Shown here in pieces: positions 45,454 to 52,827 of a stretch of DNA of 64,000 bases; position 1 is the first letter of the stretch; each line of letters begins with the position of its first letter. The position numbers and the translations under genes are program-made. The notes beneath the pieces were generated by a model, which saw nothing but the letters and a program-made list of their open reading frames with translations, made no database searches and was not told the origin of the DNA. Source of the stretch: Escherichia coli (GTDB lineage: Bacteria; Pseudomonadota; Gammaproteobacteria; Enterobacterales; Enterobacteriaceae); the NCBI RefSeq assembly GCF_001677475.2, contig NZ_CP015229.1; one strand, written 5' to 3'.

Positions 45454-46164
45454 ATGAACGCTGAGCGTAAATTTCTGTTTGCCTGTCTTATTTTTGCGCT
45501 GGTCATTTACGCTATCCACGCTTTCGGTTTATTCGATCTGCTCACCGATTTACCCCACTTACAGACACTCATCCGCCAGAGCGGATTGTTCGGTTATAGC
45601 CTCTATATTCTGTTATTCATCATTGCCACCCTCTTTCTGTTACCAGGAAGCATACTGGTGATCGCTGGAGGAATAGTTTTTGGCCCGCTCTTAGGGACAC
45701 TACTCTCATTAATTGCCGCCACGCTCGCCTCCTCGTGCTCATTCCTGCTGGCGCGCTGGCTGGGACGTGATTTACTGCTGAAATACGTGGGCCATAGCCA
45801 TACCTTTCAGGCCATTGAAAAAGGCATTGCGCGTAACGGTATTGATTTTCTTATTCTGACCCGCTTAATCCCGTTGTTTCCTTACAATATTCAAAATTAC
45901 GCTTACGGATTAACCACAATCGCCTTCTGGCCTTATACCCTTATTTCGGCACTCACGACCCTACCCGGTATTGTTATTTATACCGTGATGGCAAGCGATC
46001 TCGCCAATGAAGGCATTACGCTGCGCTTTATTTTACAACTCTGTCTGGCGGGCCTGGCGCTGTTTATTCTCGTCCAGCTCGCAAAACTCTACGCCCGACA
46101 CAAACATGTGGATCTGTCTGCTTCGCGCCGCAGCCCACTTACTCACCCAAAAAATGAAGGATAG
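45454..46164 (+). CDS. ydjX: DedA/TVP38-family inner membrane protein
   Basis: ORF track 45406..46164; start placed at MNAERKFLFACLIF (236 aa). Confidence 0.7.
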   Translation: MNAERKFLFACLIFALVIYAIHAFGLFDLLTDLPHLQTLIRQSGLFGYSLYILLFIIATLFLLPGSILVIAGGIVFGPLLGTLLSLIAATLASSCSFLLARWLGRDLLLKYVGHSHTFQAIEKGIARNGIDFLILTRLIPLFPYNIQNYAYGLTTIAFWPYTLISALTTLPGIVIYTVMASDLANEGITLRFILQLCLAGLALFILVQLAKLYARHKHVDLSASRRSPLTHPKNEG

Positions 46165-46168
46165 AACG

Positions 46169-46846
46169 ATGTTGCAACATTATTCAGTGTCATGGAAAAA
46201 AGGACTGGCTGCACTCTGCTTACTGGCTGTTGCTGGGCTTAGCGGCTGCGATCAAAAAGAGAATGCGGCGGCAAAAGTGGAATACGACGGACTTTCGAAC
46301 AGCCAACCGCTGCGTGTCGATGCCAATAACCATACGGTAACCATGCTGGTGCAAATTAATGGTCGTTTCCTCACCGACGACACTCGTCACGGTATTGTGT
46401 TTAAAGATGGCTCCAACGGACATAAATCGCTGTTTATGGGTTATGCGACCCCGAAAGCATTTTATGAAGCCCTGAAAGAGGCAGGTGGTACACCGGGCGA
46501 AAACATGACGATGGATAATAAAGAAACGACTCATGTCACAGGCAGCAAACTGGATATTTCGGTCAACTGGCAAGGGGCGGCAAAAGCGTATTCCTTCGAT
46601 GAAGTGATTGTTGACAGTAATGGCAAGAAACTGGACATGCGCTTTGGCGGTAATTTAACGGCAGCAGAAGAGAAGAAAACGGGCTGCCTGGTGTGTCTGG
46701 ATAGCTGCCCGGTCGGCATCGTCAGCAATGCAACATACACTTATGGTGCGGTTGAAAAACGAGGTGAAGTTAAATTCAAAGGCAATGCCTCGGTTCTCCC
46801 GGCGGATAACACGCTGGCAACGGTTACCTTTAAAATCACCGAATAA
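46169..46846 (+). CDS. ydjY: Putative lipoprotein YdjY
   Basis: ORF track 46007..46846; start placed at MLQHYSVSWKK; lipobox LSGC (225 aa). Confidence 0.7.
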   Translation: MLQHYSVSWKKGLAALCLLAVAGLSGCDQKENAAAKVEYDGLSNSQPLRVDANNHTVTMLVQINGRFLTDDTRHGIVFKDGSNGHKSLFMGYATPKAFYEALKEAGGTPGENMTMDNKETTHVTGSKLDISVNWQGAAKAYSFDEVIVDSNGKKLDMRFGGNLTAAEEKKTGCLVCLDSCPVGIVSNATYTYGAVEKRGEVKFKGNASVLPADNTLATVTFKITE

Positions 46847-46860
46847 AGCCAGGATAAAGG

Positions 46861-50800: not shown

Positions 50801-51453
50801 TGCTCTGCGTGAAAAATATTTCGCTACGTTTACCAGACAGCCGCTTGCTGACAAATGTTAACTTTACGGTTGATAAAGGTGACATTGTCACGTTAATGGG
50901 GCCGTCTGGCTGTGGAAAATCCACTCTGTTTTCATGGATGATTGGTGCGCTGGCCGGACAGTTTTCTTGTACAGGTGAGCTATGGCTCAATGAGCAACGG
51001 ATTGACATGCTACCCACCGCAGAGCGTCAGATTGGCATTCTTTTCCAGGATGCACTGCTATTTGACCAGTTCAGCGTCGGGCAAAATTTACTGCTGGCTC
51101 TGCCAGCGGCACTCAAAGGTGTTGCAAGGCGCGATGCGGTAAATGATGCGCTGGAGCGTGCGGGGCTTGGCGGTATGTTCCATCAGGATCCTGCCACTTT
51201 GTCTGGCGGTCAGCGAGCGCGCGTTGCTCTGCTTCGCGCTCTTCTCGCTCAGCCAAAAGCGTTGCTACTGGATGAGCCATTCAGCCGTCTTGATGTAGCT
51301 CTGCGCGATAATTTTCGCCAGTGGGTGTTCAGCGAAGTTCGCGCCCAGGCGATCCCAGTCGTTCAGGTAACGCACGATCTCCAGGATGTTCCTGCTGATA
51401 GTTCTGTTCTGGATATGGCGCAGTGGTCAGAAAATTACAACAAACTGCGATAA
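50800..51453 (+). CDS. ynjD: ABC transporter ATP-binding protein
   Basis: ORF track 50713..51453; start placed at MLCVKNISL with TAATG overlap to ynjC; Walker A GPSGCGKST and signature LSGGQRAR (217 aa). Confidence 0.75.
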   Translation: MLCVKNISLRLPDSRLLTNVNFTVDKGDIVTLMGPSGCGKSTLFSWMIGALAGQFSCTGELWLNEQRIDMLPTAERQIGILFQDALLFDQFSVGQNLLLALPAALKGVARRDAVNDALERAGLGGMFHQDPATLSGGQRARVALLRALLAQPKALLLDEPFSRLDVALRDNFRQWVFSEVRAQAIPVVQVTHDLQDVPADSSVLDMAQWSENYNKLR

Positions 51454-51519
51454 CGCAAAGTTTTTCTCAATGCGTCAGTTCAGAATGGCGCACTCAAAAC
51501 TACAATGTCGGGATTTTCG

Positions 51520-52827
51520 ATGAAACGTGTTTCTCAAATGACCGCGCTGGCAATGGCTTTAGGGCTGGCTTGCGCTTCTTCGTGGGCCACTGTACTGGCG
51601 AAGCCTCTTACACTTGACCAGCTTCAGCAACAAAATGGCAAAGCGATAGATACTCGCCCCAGCGCGTTTTATAACGGCTGGCCACAAACCTTAAATGGCC
51701 CTTCCGGTCATGAACCAGCCGCCTTAAACCTCTCTGCCAGCTGGCTCGACAAAATGAGCACCGAACAGCTCAATGAGTGGATCAAGCAACATAACCTGAA
51801 AACCGATGCTCCGGTGGCGCTGTACGGTAATGACAAAGATGTCGACGCCGTCAAAACGCGACTGCAAAAAGCAGGTTTTACGCATATCTCCATCCTGAGT
51901 GACGCGCTAAGCGAACCTTCCCGTCTGCAAAAACTGCCGCATTTTGAGCAGCTGGTTTATCCGCAATGGCTGCACGACCTGCAACAAGGTAAAGAGGTTA
52001 CGGCGAAACCTGCCGGTGACTGGAAAGTCATTGAAGCGGCCTGGGGCGCTCCTAAGCTTTACCTTATCAGCCATATTCCCGGTGCTGACTACATCGATAC
52101 CAACGAAGTGGAAAGCGAACCGCTGTGGAACAAAGTTTCTGATGAACAACTAAAAGCGATGCTGGCAAAACACGGCATTCGCCATGACACCACGGTCATT
52201 CTGTACGGGCGTGACGTATACGCTGCAGCGCGTGTGGCGCAAATTATGCTTTATGCCGGCGTGAAAGATGTGCGCCTGCTGGATGGCGGCTGGCAAACCT
52301 GGTCCGACGCGGGTCTGCCCGTTGAGCGCGGTACGCCACCGAAAGTGAAAGCGGAACCGGATTTCGGCGTGAAGATCCCGGCACAACCGCAACTGATGCT
52401 TGATATGGAACAGGCGCGTGGACTGCTGCATCGCCAGGATGCATCGCTGGTGAGTATTCGTTCGTGGCCGGAGTTTATCGGTACGACCAGCGGTTACAGC
52501 TATATTAAACCAAAAGGTGAAATAGCCGGAGCACGTTGGGGACACGCTGGTAGCGACTCGACGCATATGGAAGATTTTCATAACCCGGATGGCACCATGC
52601 GCAGCGCCGATGATATTACGGCTATGTGGAAAGCATGGAATATCAGACCAGATCAGCAAGTTTCATTCTACTGCGGCACCGGCTGGCGCGCGTCCGAAAC
52701 CTTTATGTACGCACGAGCAATGGGCTGGAATAACGTCTCCGTTTACGACGGTGGCTGGTACGAATGGAGCAGCGATCCAAAAAATCCGGTTGCAACCGGT
52801 GAACGCGGCCCGGACAGTAGCAAATAA
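51520..52827 (+). CDS. ynjE: Thiosulfate sulfurtransferase with three rhodanese domains, periplasmic
   Basis: ORF track 51505..52827; start placed at MKRVSQMTALAMALGLA (435 aa); rhodanese active-site CGTGWR. Confidence 0.8.
   Translation: MKRVSQMTALAMALGLACASSWATVLAKPLTLDQLQQQNGKAIDTRPSAFYNGWPQTLNGPSGHEPAALNLSASWLDKMSTEQLNEWIKQHNLKTDAPVALYGNDKDVDAVKTRLQKAGFTHISILSDALSEPSRLQKLPHFEQLVYPQWLHDLQQGKEVTAKPAGDWKVIEAAWGAPKLYLISHIPGADYIDTNEVESEPLWNKVSDEQLKAMLAKHGIRHDTTVILYGRDVYAAARVAQIMLYAGVKDVRLLDGGWQTWSDAGLPVERGTPPKVKAEPDFGVKIPAQPQLMLDMEQARGLLHRQDASLVSIRSWPEFIGTTSGYSYIKPKGEIAGARWGHAGSDSTHMEDFHNPDGTMRSADDITAMWKAWNIRPDQQVSFYCGTGWRASETFMYARAMGWNNVSVYDGGWYEWSSDPKNPVATGERGPDSSK

Follow-up and report, generated by a model that had tools for sequence, protein, structure and literature searches.

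The ydjXYZ-ynjABCDE cluster of Escherichia coli as a candidate anaerobic envelope system with possible links to selenium handling

We analysed a window of 64,000 nucleotides of Escherichia coli DNA (contig NZ_CP015229.1), in which eight plus-strand open reading frames (ORFs) at 45454-52827 make up the cluster ydjX, ydjY, ydjZ, ynjA, ynjB, ynjC, ynjD and ynjE. An earlier note on this stretch had described two DedA membrane proteins flanking a lipoprotein, followed by an AhpD-like protein, an ATP-binding cassette (ABC) importer and a triple rhodanese; its gene content, order and coordinates hold to the base, as starts and stops of the ORFs agree exactly with RefSeq E. coli genes, including K-12 b1750-b1757, and profile matches agree with all of its family labels. 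The cluster begins with ydjX (45454-46164, plus strand), encoding a DedA/VTT inner-membrane protein, followed after 4 bp by the lipoprotein gene ydjY (46169-46846, plus) and after a further 14 bp by ydjZ (46861-47568, plus), encoding the second DedA/VTT inner-membrane protein. The gene of the AhpD/CMD-fold protein YnjA (47568-48116, plus) overlaps ydjZ by 1 nt and is separated by 9 bp from ynjB (48126-49292, plus), which specifies a periplasmic substrate-binding protein and in turn shares 28 nt with ynjC (49265-50800, plus), the gene of a fused double permease of 511 aa. The gene of the 217-aa ABC ATPase, ynjD (50800-51453, plus), overlaps ynjC by 1 nt, and ynjE (51520-52827, plus), encoding a periplasmic three-domain rhodanese, follows after 66 bp. 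The measured gaps (4, 14, -1, 9, -28, -1 and 66 bp in order) agree with the overlapping or near-overlapping stops and starts described before. Convergent with ynjE lies ynjF (52836-53456, minus), encoding a membrane enzyme of the CDP-alcohol phosphatidyltransferase family, and selD (59015-60058, minus) is found 6.2 kb past ynjE, where its proximity had already been pointed out.

The gene set, order, spacing and chromosomal slot (xthA ... ynjF nudG gdhA topB selD) are identical in E. coli K-12, and the two loci diverge in DNA identity only, with no functional difference visible. With an 8.5-kb query spanning the cluster (window 45000-53500), the stretch was found in 5424 of 5426 complete E. coli genomes, at least 80% of the query being covered in 5383. 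DNA identity to E. coli genomes is ~95-98%, with most genomes in the range 95-99% and 88 at 90-95%, the top value to any complete E. coli genome being 97.7%; as this maximum is just 97.7%, the source of the window seems to belong to a somewhat divergent Escherichia lineage rather than to mainstream E. coli. The locus, its main transcription unit and a molybdenum/selenium hypothesis are already in print, and the cluster itself is not new. New here are the links to selenium-trafficking genes, to HdrD-like proteins and to the ArsS radical SAM module, together with the recognition of ynjF and ynjA as a coupled pair; these links were not found in the searchable literature, and a literature search on the gene names turned up no functional study of ydjXYZ or ynjABCD. 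The earlier note had overlooked that ynjF belongs to the unit, the associations with ArsS/TIGR04282/TIGR04283 and HdrD-like proteins, and the operon structure and molybdenum/selenium idea that had already been published.

The tight spacing had been taken to suggest one transcription unit. This is correct for ydjXYZ-ynjABCD, a single operon activated directly by FNR from a site at -60.5, but not for ynjE, which forms an FNR-activated unit by itself, transcribed from a promoter within the 66-bp gap and with a site at -41.5 (Myers 2013, PMC3688515); both units are co-regulated (PMC7888660). They belong, together with yedEF and yjiLM, to an 'uncharacterized iModulon' whose activity is higher anaerobically and for which a role in molybdenum and selenium usage was proposed (Sastry 2021, PMC7888660). 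In agreement with the chromatin immunoprecipitation and RNA sequencing (RNA-seq) evidence of Myers 2013 for membership in the FNR regulon, a pattern search detected an FNR-like box, TTGAGAAAAATCAA, in the xthA-ydjX intergenic region (45331..45344, plus), with one mismatch to TTGAT-N4-ATCAA. An extended -10-like element read from the sequence, TGTTATACC (45381..45389, plus), would put the transcription start near 45396 and the box near -58, and we infer that the published -60.5 site corresponds to TTGAGAAAAATCAA. Box and -10-like element are identical in K-12; in aligned upstream regions the ATCAA half-site is kept in K-12, a Salmonella-named assembly and Kluyvera, and an AT-rich -10-like element stands at the aligned position in the latter two. 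In the ynjD-ynjE gap a consensus scan detected a sigma-70-like promoter (TTCAGA, 16-nt spacer, TACAAT; 51479..51506, plus), and a search of the same 66 bp for an FNR box serving ynjE gave nothing convincing. A terminator scan returned many weak intragenic matches, none of which convincingly divides the operon, and at the far end ynjE-ynjF is listed as a convergent transcript overlap in E. coli RNA-seq.

The predicted 5' untranslated region of ydjX also contains a perfect 6+2+6 palindrome, TATCAAGTTTGATA, at 45426-45439, i.e. 14-27 nt upstream of the start codon, which is identical in K-12 and is not kept in Salmonella or Kluyvera. It may act as an operator for the regulator of the iModulon. 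A search for an operator common to ydjX, yedE and yjiM of K-12 showed no more than loose TTGAT-like half-sites in their upstream regions, and TATCAAGTTTGATA had no clear counterpart at yedE or yjiM.

YdjY matches NF040466 (146 bits, cutoff 50; the family also appears as PF27149) and retains the C-x2-C-x3-C-P motif, which makes it a member of this family. The family is small, comprising 239 clusters at 90% identity, and the E. coli protein is ~50% identical to members from Firmicutes, Desulfobacterota and Campylobacterota. The cysteine triad, C173-x2-C176-x3-C180, is invariant in 36 sequences, as are R73 and H74, and the predicted fold appears to have no close relative among solved structures. 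The lipobox read from the sequence, L-S-G-C27, is followed by Asp28. As Asp after the lipid-carrying Cys causes inner-membrane retention according to the E. coli lipoprotein sorting rule, YdjY is predicted to remain on the periplasmic face of the inner membrane. A function as a ferredoxin, suggested by the K-12 product name '4Fe-4S ferredoxin-type', was considered and rejected: YdjY has three cysteines and not four, matches no Fer4 profile, is an exported lipoprotein and adopts the predicted fold without close solved relative noted above. The invariant triad of three cysteines thus leaves the 'ferredoxin-type' label unsupported.

The two membrane proteins match the VTT/DedA family PF09335 with 93.1 (YdjX) and 87.1 bits (YdjZ), against a cutoff of 33.9. 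YdjX, of the COG0398/TVP38 subfamily, is the more variable of the pair, and YdjZ, which is strongly conserved, is the one that accompanies ydjY. Two cysteines of YdjZ, Cys113 (kept in 25 of 26 sequences) and Cys152 (22 of 26), are located in or beside two conserved DedA motifs. The VTT/DedA domain and its conserved motifs are common to YdjX, YdjZ and the lipid transporters of the DedA superfamily, i.e. UptA-type proteins and the eukaryotic scramblases TMEM41B and VMP1; unlike these transporters, YdjZ-type proteins have two conserved cysteines and are paired with a Cys-triad lipoprotein and with thiol-redox proteins. Scores against the equivalog of the undecaprenyl-phosphate flippase UptA, NF052604, are only 27.5 (YdjX) and 36.4 bits (YdjZ), placing both proteins outside that family, whose cutoff is 250. 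A role as undecaprenyl-phosphate flippases was rejected on this ground and because COG0398 proteins are reported to lack the required residues. In the literature, COG0398 DedA proteins, the subfamily shown for YdjZ, have been described as devoid of the residues tied to undecaprenyl-phosphate transport and judged unlikely to flip this lipid; they are often fused to pyridine-nucleotide disulfide oxidoreductases resembling mercuric reductase.

YnjE contains three rhodanese stretches (118 bits in total), which assign it to the rhodaneses, and a cleavable signal peptide. Its sequence is nearly the same as that of the crystallised YnjE (3ipo, 2wlr) and includes the active-site loop C-G-T-G-W-R. Previous work treated YnjE as periplasmic and called its physiological substrate unclear, reporting poor activity with thiosulfate or 3-mercaptopyruvate as donor and no apparent thiosulfate:glutathione activity (PMC10215317). 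The next-closest solved homologue, 6h98/6ktv, aligns with residues 34-427 (E ~1e-87) and has the same CGTGWR loop. We take this chain, listed in the PDB table only as 'Sulfurtransferase', to be EanB, the anaerobic ergothioneine C-S bond-forming enzyme; YnjE differs from it by its signal peptide and periplasmic site, and no partner methyltransferase gene is located nearby. By analogy, there is a hint that the acceptor of YnjE may be a small organic molecule instead of cyanide or a thiol.

RefSeq names the K-12 protein 'molybdopterin synthase sulfurtransferase', and rhodaneses are classic sulfur carriers, in line with an operon that would import thiosulfate or other sulfur and use YnjE to supply sulfur to the molybdenum cofactor of anaerobic molybdoenzymes. 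Activation by FNR suits such a demand, as does the molybdenum/selenium proposal of Sastry 2021 (PMC7888660). However, molybdopterin is made in the cytoplasm and YnjE is a protein exported to the periplasm, its activities with the donors mentioned above are poor, no molybdenum-cofactor genes recur in the 80 neighbourhoods described below, and YnjB is unlike binders of sulfate or thiosulfate, the CysA and CysT equivalogs being far under cutoff. We consider a role in molybdenum cofactor synthesis quite improbable.

The three transport proteins form a binding-protein-dependent ABC importer, with binding protein, permease and ATPase encoded in one operon by genes with overlapping start and stop codons. 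YnjB matches SBP_bac_8 (52 bits) and NCBIfam PRK11622 (555 bits) and has a cleavable signal peptide, YnjC matches BPD_transp_1 in its C-terminal half (31.7 bits), and YnjD matches ABC_tran, PF00005 (104 bits), and is without a C-terminal regulatory domain. In Firmicutes, relatives of YnjC are two separate permease genes, giving two YnjC matches per locus. A sequence search with YnjB gave no PDB match, and its AlphaFold2 model (pLDDT 84) resembles, according to Foldseek, proteins that bind iron, polyamine, thiamine, 2-aminoethylphosphonate or sugar phosphate. YnjBCD has the layout of importers of the ThiBPQ, PotD and PhnS type, with a single binding protein, a double permease and a short ATPase, and the predicted fold class is also common to both; yet YnjB is only 11-17% identical to any solved binder, and every equivalog score is under its cutoff (ThiQ 133 bits against 245, PhnT2 139.5 against 457.7, CysA 107 against 502, CysT 22.8 against 415, PhnU2 35 against 593). 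Assignment as a thiamine (ThiBPQ), sulfate/thiosulfate (CysPTWA) or 2-aminoethylphosphonate (PhnSTUV) transporter was accordingly rejected. Hence, with no equivalog at cutoff and fold neighbours of such low identity, the ligand of YnjB is not readable from homology. The residues invariant between enteric and Firmicutes sequences (W40-G-G, D95, W98-x-N-G-E-N-F104, D136-F137, E145, Y185, D190-F191 and W239) are largely aromatic or acidic. Such a set speaks against oxyanions, e.g. selenite, sulfate or thiosulfate, and would suit an organic ligand that is cationic or polyhydroxylated.

YnjA is a member of the CMD/AhpD-like family PF02627 (36.4 bits, cutoff 23) with a CxxC-type redox motif, C74-L-C76-E-F-C79 (C-x-C-x2-C), that is also kept in the Salmonella-named orthologue. 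Its best NCBIfam match is a 'YciW-related (seleno)protein' (101 bits, under the cutoff of 310), and among solved structures it is related to AhpD-like proteins and to the debrominase Bmp8. From these features we propose that YnjA may be a cytoplasmic thiol redox partner. A relation to an ArsS-associated, peroxidase-like family was also considered and was dropped, as no such match appeared even at E values up to 10. YnjF belongs to the CDP-alcohol phosphatidyltransferases (PF01066, 43.8 bits, cutoff 22), and none of the named synthases in NCBIfam reaches its cutoff, the best being archaetidylinositol-phosphate synthase with 62.7 bits against 180.

The relation between these two genes becomes apparent in other enterics. 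In the same chromosomal slot, a Salmonella-named assembly (locus L088) and Kluyvera (L089) carry ydjX-ydjZ-ynjB-ynjC-ynjD-ynjE, without ydjY, and on the opposite strand an orthologue of ynjA (57% identity to YnjA) overlaps the start of ynjF by 8 nt (L088:12750-13935 and L089:12717-13908, both minus). This coupling places ynjF in the functional unit. The arrangement further indicates that ynjA moved into the plus-strand operon in Escherichia, between ydjZ and ynjB, and that ydjY is an optional addition in enterics, though it is the anchor elsewhere.

As ydjY is the most specific gene of the cluster, it was used as the anchor of a wider comparison. A pattern scan of one genome per species (~100,000 species) yielded 94 ydjY relatives, and 80 loci from 43 genus-level taxa were analysed by translating ORFs in six frames, comparing them with the window proteins and clustering them; recurring clusters were named by NCBIfam and Pfam, and a neighbour is a gene within 10 kb. 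Counts of taxa refer to the 41 non-enteric ones unless loci are stated, and contigs are often short. Besides Escherichia and Citrobacter, most taxa with ydjY are strict anaerobes, the rest being largely facultative Firmicutes, e.g. Gemella and Facklamia. At 73 of the 80 loci, and in 34 of the 41 non-enteric taxa, ydjY has a DedA gene as a neighbour, usually of the YdjZ type and directly downstream; ydjY and a DedA gene are the conserved core.

Around this core, families of the window recur together with others. A YnjB-like binding protein with YnjC- and YnjD-like partners is present in 7 taxa, a YnjE-like rhodanese in 6, a single-domain rhodanese with signal peptide in 7 and a YnjF-like CDP-alcohol phosphatidyltransferase in 6; the latter adjoins the gene of the YnjB-like protein in 5 taxa, all Firmicutes, and stands beside ydjY in Formimonas. 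The most frequent newcomer is a small four-helix membrane protein of ~125-150 aa with the motif W-LEMRI-T, here called m4, which occurs in 20 taxa (30 loci), mostly directly 3' of ydjY (e.g. L087:10581-11021 and L084:9559-9951), falls outside all Pfam and NCBIfam families and is missing from the window and from E. coli. At 21 loci an HdrD-like CCG/Fer4 iron-sulfur protein is encoded, which in Desulfobacterota is fused to the DedA domain, with the Fer4/CCG domain at the N-terminus of a protein of ~570-680 aa (L005:11205-12977, L026:2-1774 and L082:8023-9879); this fusion is unmentioned in the DedA literature examined. In Facklamia, a DsbD-like membrane protein and a ResA-like thioredoxin are also part of the neighbourhood.

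Genes of selenium trafficking form a further group of neighbours. YedF is found in 7 taxa (TIGR03527, 185 bits against a cutoff of 110), SelD in 5 (TIGR00476, 352 bits), Se_S_carrier (DUF3343, PF11823) in a cluster of 5 loci of which one representative was confirmed, an SclA-like cysteine desulfurase (best match TIGR01977) at 3 loci, and a PrdB-like protein with an in-frame TGA in 2 taxa. A Syntrophaceae genome has the order HdrD-VTT, YdjY, m4, SelD (L026), and a Desulfobacterales genome SelD, YedF, a small ORF, YdjY (L083), while in L087 the series YedF, SclA-like, Se_S_carrier, SelD lies ~2 kb from YdjY and m4. A double-cubane reductase encoded at a Syntrophus locus (L079) aligns over its full length with E. 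coli YjiM at 35% identity, so that physical clustering in a distant anaerobe mirrors the co-expression set of E. coli. In Facklamia lactis, a PrdB/GrdB-like gene in the ydjY/ArsS cluster (L078:3693-4430) carries a TGA codon in frame (SPG-[TGA]-YIC), after which the frame continues for ~80 codons; the product is probably a selenoprotein with a UxxC motif. A locus of another kind, in Sulfurospirillum arcachonense (L003:6954-10648), has ydjY without an adjacent DedA gene and in the company of nitrogenase-cofactor-type genes, its neighbours being two small ferredoxins, a NifB-like radical SAM protein and a homocitrate-synthase-like gene.

The ArsS module is represented by the radical SAM protein ArsS in 8 taxa (TIGR04167, 337 bits against a cutoff of 300) and by TIGR04282/TIGR04283 transferases in 9 (155-229 bits, above cutoffs), and an LPG_synthase_TM flippase-like protein and an inosine-uridine (IU) nucleoside hydrolase recur in 6 and 3 taxa, respectively. 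In Campylobacter concisus the order is YdjY, m4, TIGR04282-kinase, DedA, DedA, TIGR04283, HdrD-like, ArsS. ArsS and the YnjB-like importer are never in the same locus and both always accompany ydjY and DedA among the 80 loci, a point weakened by the short contigs. In a tblastn search with representatives, the 64-kb window contained neither ArsS nor TIGR04282 nor TIGR04283, and YedF and m4 were also absent from it; the window therefore does not encode the ArsS system proper.

The recurrence of these families bears on the simplest account of the locus, namely that YnjBCD is an ordinary nutrient importer, YdjX/YdjZ serve general membrane homeostasis, YnjE stands alone, and co-transcription reflects a shared anaerobic need. 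Such an account draws on the varied ligands of the fold neighbours of YnjB and on the label 'putative thiamine transport' given to YnjB in some databases, on YnjBCD being far more widespread in enterics than YdjY, and on the weak induction of ynjABCD, independently of ydjXYZ, upon overproduction of BaeR (Bury-Moné 2009). However, YdjY, DedA, YnjB/C/D-, YnjE- and YnjF-like families re-assemble in varied orders in Firmicutes, Campylobacterota and enterics, which is not expected of unrelated functions, and the score against the ThiQ equivalog is under its cutoff. A loose neighbourhood of this kind appears improbable to us.

Two groups of functions can be distinguished in the ydjY neighbourhoods. 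The first consists of thiol chemistry, i.e. YnjE and other rhodaneses, the YdjY triad, the YdjZ cysteines, and HdrD-/AhpD-like and DsbD-/ResA-like proteins, with selenium carriers nearby. The second comprises lipid or sugar activation and import: YnjF, TIGR04282, TIGR04283, ArsS, the nucleoside hydrolase, a kinase, LPG_synthase_TM and YnjBCD. The earlier note had offered, as speculation, that the sulfurtransferase and the nearby selD hint at sulfur or selenium handling. This idea is strengthened by the co-expression of the cluster with yedEF and yjiLM in E. coli (PMC7888660), and by the distance of only 1-8 kb between the ydjY-DedA core and selD, yedF, the Se/S-carrier and the SclA-like desulfurase in other phyla.

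Based on these observations, our favoured though tentative reading is that the cluster is an anaerobic thiol-based envelope relay that captures and imports selenium most likely, with sulfane sulfur as the fallback. In the periplasm, an external donor would pass the element to YnjE, on which it would be bound to cysteine as a persulfide or perselenide. YdjY, tethered to the periplasmic face of the inner membrane, would then hold it on the three-cysteine site, e.g. as a selenotrisulfide, prior to passage across the membrane via the YdjX/YdjZ DedA pair, to which YdjZ may contribute its two conserved cysteines. On the cytoplasmic side, a thiol reductase would free the element, namely the CxCxxC protein YnjA in enterics and the HdrD-like CCG iron-sulfur protein, often fused to DedA, elsewhere. 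The reduction of disulfide or trisulfide bonds is the established chemistry of CCG-domain enzymes like HdrD and DsrK, so that a release of selenide from a selenotrisulfide is plausible. The freed element would be passed on to carriers such as YedF and then to SelD. YnjBCD presumably imports a small organic molecule on which YnjF probably acts, and the model is weakest where this arm would join the relay. Only the list of parts, its regulation and the associations among genes are established; every step, like all functional claims made here, is deduced from genomic neighbourhood, regulatory data and features of the sequences.

The downstream end of the proposed relay would lead to members of a gene set previously predicted for selenium trafficking. 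The YedE/YedF/DUF3343/Sec-lyase/SelD set was predicted from context only and, as proposed here, features Cys-based carrier chemistry (Lin et al. 2015, PMC5322559). That study tied YjiL-like, YjiM-like, YedE, YedF and DUF3343 genes to SelD and selenocysteine (Sec)-lyase genes in Slackia, without mention of DedA, rhodanese partners or ABC transporters. The set is co-expressed with the present cluster in E. coli and lies 1-8 kb from ydjY-DedA in Desulfobacterota and Facklamia. None of its families is encoded at 45454-52827, however, and YedF, DUF3343 and SelD are cytoplasmic whereas the present cluster is largely extracytoplasmic or membrane-bound. A bolder version would regard the cluster and ynjF, with yedEF, as a dedicated bacterial selenium acquisition system, in which YdjY binds selenium and YdjX/YdjZ are a thiol-assisted chalcogen conduit and not lipid scramblases; we hold this to be unlikely.

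Several points weigh against the selenium relay. SelD lies within 10 kb of ydjY in just 5 of the 41 non-enteric taxa and YedF in 7, mostly in Desulfobacterota, and this proximity could serve selenoproteins of the same clusters, e.g. the PrdB-like proteins or the '(seleno)protein' relatives of ArsS. Many loci, as in Gemella and Finegoldia, consist of ydjY-ydjZ only, with no selenium gene within 10 kb, and the Salmonella-named assembly and Kluyvera retain the other genes in the absence of ydjY. The proximity of selD in E. coli is synteny common to enterics and carries no independent weight. The DedA/VTT proteins characterised so far flip or scramble lipids rather than transport ions. The conserved residues of YnjB are unlike those of an oxyanion binder, so that selenite is unlikely as the ABC substrate, and a simple uptake relay leaves YnjF, a lipid enzyme, unexplained.

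YnjF is accommodated by the main rival, which we judge unlikely, namely that the cluster is a reduced version of the ArsS ('arsenosugar biosynthesis') system devoted to lipid-linked head-group salvage. Here, YnjBCD would import a ready-made polar alcohol, e.g. a 5-deoxy-5-(arsenic- or selenium-substituted) ribosyl compound, which YnjF would join to lipid by a phosphodiester at the cytoplasmic face; the DedA pair would flip the product, and YdjY and YnjE would act on the head group in the periplasm. The module of ArsS, TIGR04282 and TIGR04283, formerly named 'rSAM/selenodomain-associated', is found in operon-like arrangement with ydjY, m4 and DedA pairs in Campylobacter concisus, Facklamia, Thermincola, Syntrophus and others, and E. 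coli has the ABC importer and YnjF instead of the three defining genes. In favour of salvage, lipid-related families recur beside ydjY, i.e. YnjF-like enzymes (in 5 of 6 taxa adjoining a YnjB-like gene), DedA pairs and LPG_synthase_TM, and the glycosyltransferase family 2 protein TIGR04283 (196-229 bits, cutoff 182) is weakly similar to polyprenyl-phosphate glycosyltransferases. ArsS and the TIGR04282/TIGR04283 transferases are themselves recurrent, in the 8 and 9 taxa given above, and an aminoglycoside phosphotransferase (APH)-type kinase fused to TIGR04282, together with the IU-nucleoside hydrolase, fits a path from nucleoside via ribose to activated sugar. That ArsS and the importer never co-occur in a locus fits biosynthesis in one case and salvage in the other of a single intermediate, and the translational coupling of ynjA and ynjF in Salmonella and Kluyvera points the same way. 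On the other hand, the window is without the three defining genes, the complementary distribution of ArsS and importer rests on contigs that are often short, and salvage alone leaves the thiol-redox partners and the SelD/YedF links unexplained. We know of no unusual E. coli phospholipid, and the sole characterised ArsS activity, to our knowledge, is on arsenic in a cyanobacterium. A literature search on the ArsS-associated families gave almost nothing usable. The favoured relay and lipid-linked salvage are not mutually exclusive.

The presence of ArsS relatives, along with a Finegoldia locus that has arsA, acr3 and arsC a few kb upstream, could instead reflect detoxification of a soft metalloid or metal (arsenite, tellurite or mercury), with the ion bound by the YdjY triad and processed by the DedA pair and redox partners. 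A three-cysteine site is the classic ligand set for As(III), and the frequent fusion of COG0398 DedA proteins to mercuric-reductase-like oxidoreductases is compatible with such a function. However, in E. coli the cluster responds to FNR and anaerobiosis and not to a metal sensor, neither regulators of the ArsR or MerR type nor efflux pumps are recurrent in the clusters, and an ABC importer would be an odd component. Detoxification thus seems highly improbable.

Returning to the selenium relay, the demand of E. coli for selenium arises mainly in anaerobic growth, when formate dehydrogenases require it, and this is the condition where FNR turns the cluster on. Selenium handling, if true, would provide a function for eight or nine genes of E. 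coli, for the conserved protein YdjY and for the COG0398 DedA branch, whose eukaryotic relatives TMEM41B and VMP1 are medically important. A dedicated selenium system would give this branch a new biochemical function and provide a mechanistic tie to the ArsS radical SAM module of anaerobes. A standing gap in trace-element biology would become directly testable in the best genetic model, as two recent papers state that no organism is known to have a transporter dedicated to selenium (PMC11097638, PMC9312934). Lipid-linked salvage, if true, would mean that E. coli makes a previously unseen phospholipid head group under anaerobiosis. The locus is ordinary and catalogued, and the value of the analysis is a sharpened hypothesis on an open question.

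Beyond the cluster, nudG (53543-53950, plus) and ynjH (53916-54188, minus) are convergent, with 3' ends that overlap by 35 nt (53916-53950), and nudG-ynjH is also among the transcript-overlap pairs in the ExcludonFinder paper. An Rfam scan of the window detected no RNA family within the cluster; matches at gathering score lie away from it and comprise the Phe leader (11420-11544, minus), the small RNA (sRNA) STnc540 (7427-7579, minus) and the sRNA ES036/CssrF (35418-35460, plus).

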